Part shown: positions 3,780 to 4,448 of the stretch, piece by piece
Layout: the number at the start of each line of letters is the position of its first letter
How positions within the stretch are numbered: position 1 is the stretch's first letter
IMG/VR virus record: IMGVR_UViG_2671180809_000008
DNA length: 6,173 nucleotides
Source: a virus
Lineage: Duplodnaviria > Heunggongvirae > Uroviricota > Caudoviricetes
Reading direction: 5' to 3' (one strand)
Notes under the pieces: model-generated
The model's input: only the letters and a program-made list of their open reading frames with translations
What the model was told of the DNA's origin: nothing
Database searches by the model: none
Position numbers and translations under genes: made by a program

Positions 3780-4448
3780 CTATTTTTTCCCTGAAGCGGA
3801 AAACATTACTACAGTACCTTGAACCCTGGTTTTAACATTCTCGAAATGCTCTGAGAGTATATGTGTTAAGCCTTCTTCGGAATCTTTTGTGTTTGAAAAG
3901 ATGCCTTTCTGATTGTAAATGCGCATCAGTTTTTGACCGAAGCTATTGTGCACAACTCCATCGCCAAGAATTGTGGCTCCGTATAGAGTTCCATCGTCAG
4001 TTAAGGCCTGCGCCGCATTGCGTATTACACAGCTTTTTGTAGATATATTTCCAGGCAGGCAGTGAAGAAGGTAAAACATGGAAATGGAATCAAATTGACC
4101 ATGTAACGCCGCGGGATAAGGTTCAAAAACATCATGGCTAATTTTATGTTTAATTTTTGATTCCCCAGCCCTTGTAGATGCCGCGTTCAGGCTAGCTTCG
4201 TTCAAATCCATTAAAGATATCAGACTACTCTCAGGTACGTGAGTAAGGTAAAACCCAGTTCCAACACCAATATCCAGATGGTTGTTACCTAAATGTTCCA
4301 GAAAGTGTGGAAGAAGGTGTTCCTTTGTAGGACATCCCCATGCAAGCCGATTTGATACTCCCAAAACCCACCAGTCATAAAGCTTTAGGGTAAGTGGTGT
4401 GTAAATTTTAGCCCCATCATCTGTGTTTGTTTTCATTGATTTCACCAT
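3780..4448 (-). CDS. Class I (Rossmann-fold) SAM-dependent methyltransferase, substrate unknown
   Basis: 222-aa ORF with motif I LDIGVGTG followed by an acidic residue at the end of the next strand (SLMDLNE) and a motif II-like FDSISMFYLLHCLP. AT-rich and co-oriented with ipaH. An alternative start at M5 (4436) has GGTGA 7 nt upstream. Confidence 0.8.
   Translation of the reverse strand: MVKSMKTNTDDGAKIYTPLTLKLYDWWVLGVSNRLAWGCPTKEHLLPHFLEHLGNNHLDIGVGTGFYLTHVPESSLISLMDLNEASLNAASTRAGESKIKHKISHDVFEPYPAALHGQFDSISMFYLLHCLPGNISTKSCVIRNAAQALTDDGTLYGATILGDGVVHNSFGQKLMRIYNQKGIFSNTKDSEEGLTHILSEHFENVKTRVQGTVVMFSASGKK

Follow-up and report, generated by a model that had tools for sequence, protein, structure and literature searches.

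Lambdoid prophages can carry phage morons and effector loci at their ends, downstream of the tail-fibre genes. The cryptic prophage DLP12 of Escherichia coli K-12 includes the pseudogene ybcY (b0562), flanked by tfaD and tfaX, with appY and ompT as the next genes. The spacer between ybcY and tfaX in K-12 contains a TTGATT/TATAAC pair that is listed as a constitutive RpoD promoter by genomic SELEX, and this spacer is also flagged as H-NS-bound (PMC3946193). A second described arrangement is that of Shigella flexneri 301, in which the small RNA CssrB (chromosome-encoded Shigella sRNA B; northern-verified, ~180 nt) is encoded between SF2021 and SF2022 and is oriented opposite to both genes (PMC3071730). 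According to a review of the NEL family, the SF2022 product is IpaH2022, also named IpaHe (PMC9320238). The papers that we found name ybcY only in passing, and a search combining ipaH, methyltransferase and prophage returned nothing relevant.

Here we compare with these systems a 6,173-nt stretch of DNA from the virus record IMGVR_UViG_2671180809_000008, the whole of which we refer to as the window. Its methyltransferase gene, at 3780-4448, corresponds by position to SF2021, which adjoins ipaH2022 in S. flexneri 301. We consider it probable that the gene is an intact ybcY moron encoding a stand-alone class I methyltransferase of the small-molecule type, and that an ipaHe module was inserted beside it. 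The features on which the comparison relies are as follows.

2633..2750, plus strand: 3' end fragment of a tail-fibre-assembly gene (tfa), left copy of a 118-nt direct repeat (repeat family D1)
2756, no strand: single N, a scaffold join, at the boundary of allele-specific and multi-copy ipaH sequence (N position, copy counts)
2757..3464, minus strand: 5' part of ipaHe (= ipaH2022), 236 codons with secretion signal and LRR domain, NEL missing (Pfam LRR_TTSS/LRR)
3583..3599, minus strand: perfect MxiE box GTATCGTTTTTTTACAG, 0 mismatches, 119 nt upstream of the ipaH start
3592..3771, plus strand: CssrB sRNA, antisense to both flanking genes, part of the ipaHe module (Rfam RF02799)
3738..3774, no strand: strong hairpin abutting the methyltransferase stop codon, left edge of the shared cassette (fold energy)
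3780..4448, minus strand: coding sequence of a ybcY-family class I SAM-dependent methyltransferase (ORF, Pfam, PHROG 2132, K-12 identity, AlphaFold2)
4449..4504, minus strand: AT-rich promoter region of the methyltransferase, 56 bp, 27% GC (scan, sequence, published K-12 site)
4505..4923, plus strand: tfa gene fragment(s), divergent from the methyltransferase, with the right repeat copy at 4806-4923 (Caudo_TAP, repeats D1/D2)

Protein and identity of the methyltransferase

The open reading frame runs on the minus strand from the ATG at 4448 to 3780 with no interruption and encodes 222 aa. The product scored above the curated Pfam cut-offs for Methyltransf_12 (37.6, with a cut-off of 30), Methyltransf_23, Methyltransf_25 and Methyltransf_11, and all of its Pfam matches are generic (Methyltransf_11, 12, 23, 25 and 31, and MTS). 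Motif I (GxGxG) is present as HLDIGVGTG at residues 57-65, with acidic residues at D81, at the end of strand 2 where the ribose would be contacted, and at D106, in motif III where adenine would be contacted, and these positions are invariant in an alignment of 43 family members. An AlphaFold2 model built with 43 homologues as input has a mean pLDDT of 90.2 and a pTM of 0.87. Its sheet is composed of seven strands (residues 56-60, 76-81, 99-104, 119-125, 149-160, 202-210 and 213-221), and disorder is limited to residues 1-14. By sequence and structural model, the product is a class I (Rossmann-fold) SAM-dependent methyltransferase, as the initial annotation had read from the letters. SAM would be bound through G61, G63 and G65 together with D81 and D106.

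The conserved start of the protein is M5 (ATG at 4436), the first residue of every homologue from other genera and of the PHROG profile. Moreover, codon 1 is not ATG in the second copy of the gene in E. coli S88. Together, these observations indicate that the conserved product is probably the 218-aa form beginning at M5.

The window protein matched PHROG 2132, a family annotated as function unknown, with an E-value of 9.3e-156, and residues 5-222 covered profile positions 1-218 of 218. At the nucleotide level, the K-12 ybcY locus is 98.6% identical to the window over 904 nt. The two loci share the tfaD-ybcY-tfaX placement (the tfa fragment(s) at 4505..4923 are the counterpart of K-12 tfaX), the promoter hexamers and the 3' hairpin, but the K-12 copy is a pseudogene whereas the window copy is intact. 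The copies in S88, phage 2G7b and ipaH-carrying E. coli are ~99% identical to the window locus, and the RefSeq entry WP_000239881 (“class I SAM-dependent methyltransferase”) and its relatives are also among the closest known entries. Using megablast of positions 3465-4504 against 5426 complete E. coli genomes, we detected the methyltransferase at ≥95% identity in 3838 (71%), often in multiple copies. The gene was initially described as an orphan, a label that does not survive this comparison: it is an intact copy of ybcY, a member of PHROG 2132, and is already annotated in thousands of genomes. Public annotation and papers already cover the gene together with its family and surroundings, CssrB among them, and little of this is new.

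Related proteins are numerous. The YbcY family comprises 2296 clusters in a 90%-identity collection, and among representatives at 50% identity 1325 relatives were found with E ≤ 1e-3, of which 196 had E ≤ 1e-30. Homologues with 56-68% identity occur in Enterobacter, Salmonella, Citrobacter, Klebsiella, Yersinia, Erwinia and beyond. Those that we examined, from Enterobacter, Salmonella, Erwinia and Yersinia, stand alone on the chromosome and outside prophages, which shows that the phage copy was captured from a chromosomal family of the Enterobacterales. No conserved gene neighbour was found across Enterobacter, Salmonella, Erwinia, Yersinia, a Shewanella-like contig and a soil metagenome, and the context therefore points to no pathway. 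The initial annotation had named membership of a housekeeping methyltransferase family, with conserved chromosomal synteny unrelated to prophages, as evidence that would speak against its reading. The homologues are indeed chromosomal and non-prophage, but neither a confident housekeeping assignment nor synteny across genera was found. A few distant members of the family are fused to P450 or RCC1 domains, which was not informative.

The state of the E. coli copies raises the alternative that ybcY is decaying in defective prophages as a passenger without function. Besides the K-12 pseudogene, truncated protein clusters are common (a 161-aa form, for instance, has 445 members), and the gene sits among tfa fragments at rearranged prophage ends. 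We conclude from the pseudogene and the common truncated variants that the gene is dispensable. However, it is intact in the window, in the main 222-aa protein cluster with its 6589 member sequences, and in inducible lambdoid phages. The dN/dS values among the more diverged E. coli copies, which are based on few substitutions, are 0.09-0.28 and so well below 1, and across genera, where identity is 56-68%, the alignment of 43 sequences retains 55 invariant columns. The family is apparently under purifying selection, to judge from these comparisons, and we regard the passenger explanation as unlikely.

Enzyme class and candidate active site

A search of the PDB with the single sequence gave juvenile-hormone-acid methyltransferase (JHAMT) and UbiG as best matches, with E-values of ~1e-3, and a profile of 45 members gave NodS, XrdM and CysG as best matches, with E-values of 1e-6 to 1e-5. 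Using the AlphaFold2 model as the query, the top Foldseek matches were a bacterial phosphatidylethanolamine N-methyltransferase, JHAMT, phosphoethanolamine methyltransferases, CysG, NodS, CouO/NovO and Coq5, with TM scores of 0.55-0.66 and 13-21% identity. The nearest folds of the confident model are mainly small-molecule enzymes, and among viral structures Foldseek found generic methyltransferases only. By fold and by profile, the protein groups with small-molecule methyltransferases. Scans of NCBIfam with the single protein and with the 45 members gave only matches to BioC, UbiE, NodS and CpaM that are far below the cut-offs, so no functional subfamily can be assigned, in agreement with the first reading of the gene.

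One role that had been suggested for the gene is that of a modification enzyme. The protein could be imagined to act on nucleic acid, either as a phage-protective or epigenetic DNA methylase or as an RNA/tRNA methylase that alters translation. We searched the protein for features of DNA methylases and found no (D/N/S)PP(Y/F/W) motif, no PCQ/ENV motif, no target-recognition domain and no DNA-methylase Pfam match. It consists of a bare 218-aa Rossmann domain and a short N-terminal helix, with neither a target-recognition nor an RNA-binding domain. PADLOC returned a single weak match for the window protein, to mad2, which reflects no more than the common fold. Given this, and the small-molecule enzymes that make up the best sequence, profile and fold matches, we consider action on nucleic acid very unlikely, and the proposal of DNA modification finds no backing.

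CysG, one of the structural neighbours, offers a lead to the mechanism. CysG and BelI belong to the Ca2+-dependent carboxylate O-methyltransferases, and their metal site is formed by His122, His123 and Asp191. The substrate is contacted by Arg22, His167 and Arg187, and the closest structural relative of the two enzymes is MM_2633 (PMC11408123). Together with MM_2633 (PDB 3DTN), CysG and BelI represent the metal-dependent carboxylate O-methyltransferases of beta-lactone biosynthesis. We built an alignment of the CysG clade from full-length proteins, in which the metal and substrate residues of CysG are invariant, and compared it with the YbcY family. The hhalign probability was 97.8%, but only the Rossmann core was aligned, and the C-terminal halves (including the Asp191 region) and the N-termini were not. 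Within the core, HLDIGVGTG, D81 and D106 of YbcY align to G54, D77 and D102 of CysG. H129 and C130 fall on His122 and His123, a placement that is also visible in the match of the 45-member profile. YbcY D189, N186 and H167 are invariant and lie at sequence positions similar to those of CysG residues, and are candidate equivalents only.

The differences are substantial. The His-His-Asp site of CysG and BelI is incomplete in YbcY, in which C130 takes the place of His123. The N-terminal gatekeeper segment of the CysG clade (YDxxRRxLIPxFDxFYG, with Arg22), which gates the substrate and in which R20-R21 are invariant, is replaced by LKLYDWWVL in YbcY. Identity between YbcY and CysG or BelI is 16-18%, and the YbcY gene lies outside any surrounding biosynthetic cluster. 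With an incomplete metal motif and unaligned C-termini, we conclude that YbcY is not a member of the CysG/BelI family.

The YbcY family has conserved motifs of its own outside the SAM site (LYDWWVL, YLLHCLPG, YGATILG and YNxKGIFSNxxD). By analogy with CysG, H129/C130 and the conserved C-terminal loop suggest a catalytic or metal site. The invariant N-terminal helix (Y24-D25), the H129-C130 pair that follows strand 4, and the YNxKGIFSNxxD loop with N186 and D189 may together make up the active site. YbcY would methylate a small substrate other than nucleic acid, and the comparison with CysG suggests that a small acid, amine or lipid head-group is likelier than a macromolecule. This prophage methyltransferase occurs in ~70% of sequenced E. 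coli and is conserved across the Enterobacterales, and knowledge of its substrate would add to the picture of how prophage cargo affects the host.

A sharper form of this explanation is that YbcY is a metal-assisted methyltransferase acting on the carboxylate or amine of a lipid or metabolite. The models would be either a PmtA-like enzyme, which carries out phosphatidylethanolamine N-methylation, or a CysG/BelI-like enzyme, with Ca2+-dependent O-methylation of a small dicarboxylic acid. Identity to these enzymes is only 15-18%, the second His is a Cys, and the RR motif in the N-terminal segment of CysG is absent. In addition, the C-terminal halves are unaligned in hhalign, which leaves the Asp a candidate equivalent only. 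E. coli is not known to produce methylated phosphatidylethanolamine, which counts against the PmtA-like role. We therefore treat the metal-assisted form as doubtful, although it is compatible with the broader assignment to small-molecule enzymes.

A more far-reaching possibility, which we consider improbable at present, is that YbcY represents a class of metal-assisted small-molecule methyltransferases, using the His-Cys pair after strand 4 with Asn186 and Asp189, that lambdoid phages have spread through E. coli and Shigella as a lysogenic-conversion gene and that may also be coupled to ipaHe in Shigella. If this were true, YbcY could methylate and neutralise a toxic acid or thiol, either gut-derived or bacterial, and the coupling of ybcY and ipaHe in Shigella could act through the convergent CssrB and the common hairpin.

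The prophage cassette and its putative transcription signals

The cassette that is common to the prophages of ordinary E. coli starts at 3740, at the hairpin. In S88 and phage 2G7b the gene order is tail fibre, tfa' fragment, opposite-strand methyltransferase, tfa' fragment, alpha/beta hydrolase, ompT and integrase. The placement of the methyltransferase between two tfa' fragments, counter to the tail genes, is shared by the window, K-12, S88, 2G7b and the ipaH-carrying E. coli, although in the window the left flank spans the N join. The next genes in most E. coli are a tfa' fragment, an alpha/beta hydrolase gene or appY, and ompT. In the window and nine ipaH-carrying E. coli genomes, the ipaHe/CssrB module is located just past the hairpin.

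The gene had been described as lying within a repeat-bracketed cargo block. We found that a 118-nt direct repeat does flank the gene (2633-2750 and 4806-4923, 90% identical). However, the repeats are the 3' ends of tail-fibre-assembly genes, which also flank the cassette in ordinary E. coli, and the left copy lies across the N join at 2756. A base-composition argument had been made as well. The methyltransferase (41.3% GC) resembles ipaH (40.1%), but the claimed contrast with the flanking phage genes (42.5-48.8%) is weak.

Two promoter-like pairs of hexamers are present upstream of the methyltransferase, TTAACC-16-CATAAT at 4504-4477 and TTGATT-17-TATAAC at 4477-4449, and the second is the pair published for K-12 as an RpoD site. 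The proposal that the gene has a promoter of its own is supported to this extent, but a promoter scan of the methyltransferase region gave 3 sites where 4.1 are expected by chance. At the other end of the gene, the hairpin at 3738-3774 has folding energies of -24.4 and -20.4 kcal/mol on the plus and minus strands, respectively (z = -4.7 and -3.0). A scan of 3400-4950 with a terminator consensus detected no intrinsic terminator-like site, the hairpin included. On the basis of the folding energies, we consider it likely that the hairpin is a bidirectional terminator, which could end both the CssrB and the methyltransferase transcripts.

Fourteen lambdoid phage records carry the methyltransferase at ≥98.6% identity, among them 2G7b, ev243, the PhiR series, Turner and Kati, and it is missing or fragmentary in other lambdoid phages (for example, Ayreon and PhiR49_2). 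As in prophage-end morons, the window gene is cargo in the distal late/tail region with variable presence among related phages, and in this family of loci it adjoins other conversion genes (ompT, lom and ipaH). Unlike typical moron cargo, it encodes a protein of metabolic type, not an effector, toxin or surface protein. The features expected of a moron are present in the sequence, including a promoter-like site, a 3' hairpin, insertion in the late region in an orientation counter to the tail genes, and presence or absence among phages, and the moron character initially proposed is borne out. The gene is a known phage moron cassette, and none of our results points to a virulence or secretion role.

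In the explanation that we prefer, the ybcY cassette is a moron that travels with the lambdoid prophages found in E. coli and Shigella. It occupies the distal end of their tail-fibre region, between leftover tfa 3' ends, and would be transcribed against the tail genes from an AT-rich region of the sigma-70 promoter type, with the strong hairpin at its 3' end putatively terminating transcription on both strands. The gene may be expressed in the lysogen, with a benefit to the host and not to phage growth.

The ipaHe module and the assembly of the window

The ipaH frame begins at 3464, 315 bp downstream of the methyltransferase and in the same orientation, as initially reported, although the window retains only its first 236 codons. 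This part (2757..3464) is 99.8% identical to annotated ipaHe. CssrB was identified by a full-length match to RF02799 with 230 bits (gathering score 76). Using the MxiE box consensus of PMC9320238, we scanned the whole window and found a single match with ≤3 mismatches, the perfect box at 3583-3599. It is downstream of the methyltransferase and in front of ipaH, which it would serve, and there is no MxiE box with ≤3 mismatches upstream of the methyltransferase, which agrees with the initial reading. The spacer between the two genes thus contains the hairpin, CssrB on the opposite strand and the MxiE box of ipaH, and this arrangement makes it most likely that the methyltransferase and ipaH are transcribed separately.

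The adjacency of the two genes is the basis for the alternative that the methyltransferase is a virulence partner of ipaHe, either co-regulated or T3-secreted and modifying, for example, a host or effector target. In the window, the methyltransferase is directly upstream of ipaHe and co-oriented with it. All 15 ipaHe copies that we found, in nine genomes, have the methyltransferase alongside, and the disordered residues 1-14 of the AlphaFold2 model could be taken in favour of such a partnership. These nine genomes are apparently enteroinvasive strains. However, the converse almost never holds. The methyltransferase is without an adjacent ipaHe in 3829 of the 3838 carrier genomes, and ipaH sequence was detected in only 10 of the 5426 genomes, so that most carriers lack any. 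The co-occurrence with ipaH, a check that had been proposed, does not support a link. An MxiE-regulated T3SS substrate would have a MxiE box in its own promoter and a distribution limited to strains with the invasion plasmid, and neither was found. Moreover, the strong hairpin and the convergent CssrB separate the two genes, the window protein is ~98-99% identical to copies of non-invasive strains and free phages, and the orthologues of other genera are in non-prophage chromosomal settings. In combination, the results make a virulence partnership extremely unlikely.

We instead infer that a ~2-kb ipaHe module was inserted beside a pre-existing cassette, given that ipaHe always has the methyltransferase as its neighbour. 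In S88, which is without the ipaH module, the tfa' fragment continues directly into the hairpin and the methyltransferase. The 983 nt from 2757 to 3739 (the ipaH 5' part and the sequence upstream of it) occur in 9 of the 5426 genomes, at one or two places per genome, all annotated as ipaHe. The order in the ipaH-carrying loci is J, lom, tail fibre, DUF4376, ipaHe, methyltransferase, tfa', dinI and the prophage end. The module, with ipaHe, its MxiE box and CssrB, would have entered just past the hairpin in the Shigella/EIEC lineage. The adjacency to ipaH would then be secondary, an effector module having landed beside ybcY, and the apparent effector link stems from the insertion site of ipaHe.

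The window contains one N at 2756 and 52 at 4644-4695, the latter interrupting the tfa fragment at 4505..4923. Between these, positions 2757-4643 are 99.5% identical to one contiguous stretch of the chromosome of an ipaH-carrying E. coli strain. Left of the first N, 2657-2755 is 100% identical to the tfa' piece of S88 that abuts the methyltransferase hairpin. This sequence stops within the left arm of the hairpin, and would naturally run on into the methyltransferase rather than into ipaH. Within ipaH, the break falls where the allele-specific part (one or two places per genome) gives way to the conserved NEL-domain part, and the 936 nt absent from the window are found at 6-10 places per genome with ≥99% identity. 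A break at such a boundary is the signature of a short-read contig end joined by a scaffolder. We also considered that the ipaH truncation might be a biological deletion, but rejected this, as the N join, the S88 match and the multi-copy NEL part favour an assembly break. To judge from these matches, the “LRR-only” truncation of ipaH and the linkage of the left repeat to the block are probably both assembly artefacts.

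Small RNA and scaffold joins around ipaH

The spacer separating ipaH from the methyltransferase gene contains a full-length copy of the small RNA CssrB, the 5′ start of which adjoins the MxiE box. CssrB is convergent with the methyltransferase gene, and the two have a predicted terminator hairpin in common. This part of the window also includes two scaffold joins and two matches to an Rfam candidate RNA.

2608-2687 and 4700-4860 (+), matches to Rfam candidate RNA IS009, both under its gathering score
2756, single N, scaffold join
3592-3771 (+), CssrB small RNA (Rfam RF02799, 230 bits, full-length match)
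4644-4695, run of 52 Ns, scaffold join

The truncated ipaH appears joined to the reverse complement of a fragment of tfa, the tail-fibre-assembly gene. As the N at 2756 coincides exactly with the point where the multi-copy NEL region of ipaH begins, we infer that both the truncation and the apparent fusion are probably assembly artefacts. The 52-N run has a 77-nt repeat on both sides (4567-4643 and 4696-4772; 96% identical). The sub-threshold IS009 matches coincide with tfa 3′ fragments and are probably a trace of the locus where this candidate was first defined, rather than a functional RNA.

Tail-fibre region and putative antisense-RNA region

Window 287-2586 looks like an invertible tail-fibre segment, in which two opposed tail-fibre-assembly genes are followed by an alternative tail-fibre C-terminus and then an invertase gene.

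287-850 (+), tail-fibre-assembly gene
323-481 and 1254-1412, 159-nt inverted arms
879-1412 (-), tail-fibre-assembly gene
1565-2176 (-), alternative tail-fibre C-terminus
2380-2586 (+), gene for a Pin/Gin-type invertase, truncated after codon 68

At the other end of the window, a Rha-family regulator gene and the RNA matches upstream of it (5315-6121), to C4, isrK and, below threshold, the c4 a1/b1 target, resemble a P1/P7-type antisense-RNA immunity region.

5315-5887 (-), Rha-family regulator gene
5923-6010 (-), C4 antisense RNA match
6034-6108 (-), isrK match
6069-6121 (-), c4 a1/b1 target match (43.8 bits, under the gathering score of 46.7)

Methyltransferase copies, neighbours and fusions elsewhere

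Escherichia coli S88 (locus L002) encodes two methyltransferase copies (6041-6709 and 11399-12067) that are 96.7% identical and about 5 kb apart. Each copy has an ompT gene after it, and this arrangement points to prophage remnants lying in tandem at the DLP12 site.

Hydrolase genes adjoin the methyltransferase gene in several settings (L003 6248-7642; L005 7584-8414; L011 4281-5813). Phage 2G7b and S88 have an alpha/beta hydrolase in this position, whose counterpart is Abhydrolase_1 in Enterobacter; Erwinia has a carboxylesterase. Because the hydrolase families differ between settings, the adjacency may be coincidence; a possible pairing of an esterase with an enzyme forming methyl esters merits attention. 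Rare domain fusions occur in distant homologues (P0240 and P0166), where a YbcY-like domain is fused to an RCC1-repeat domain (743 aa) or to a cytochrome P450 (719 aa), the latter hinting at small-molecule metabolism.
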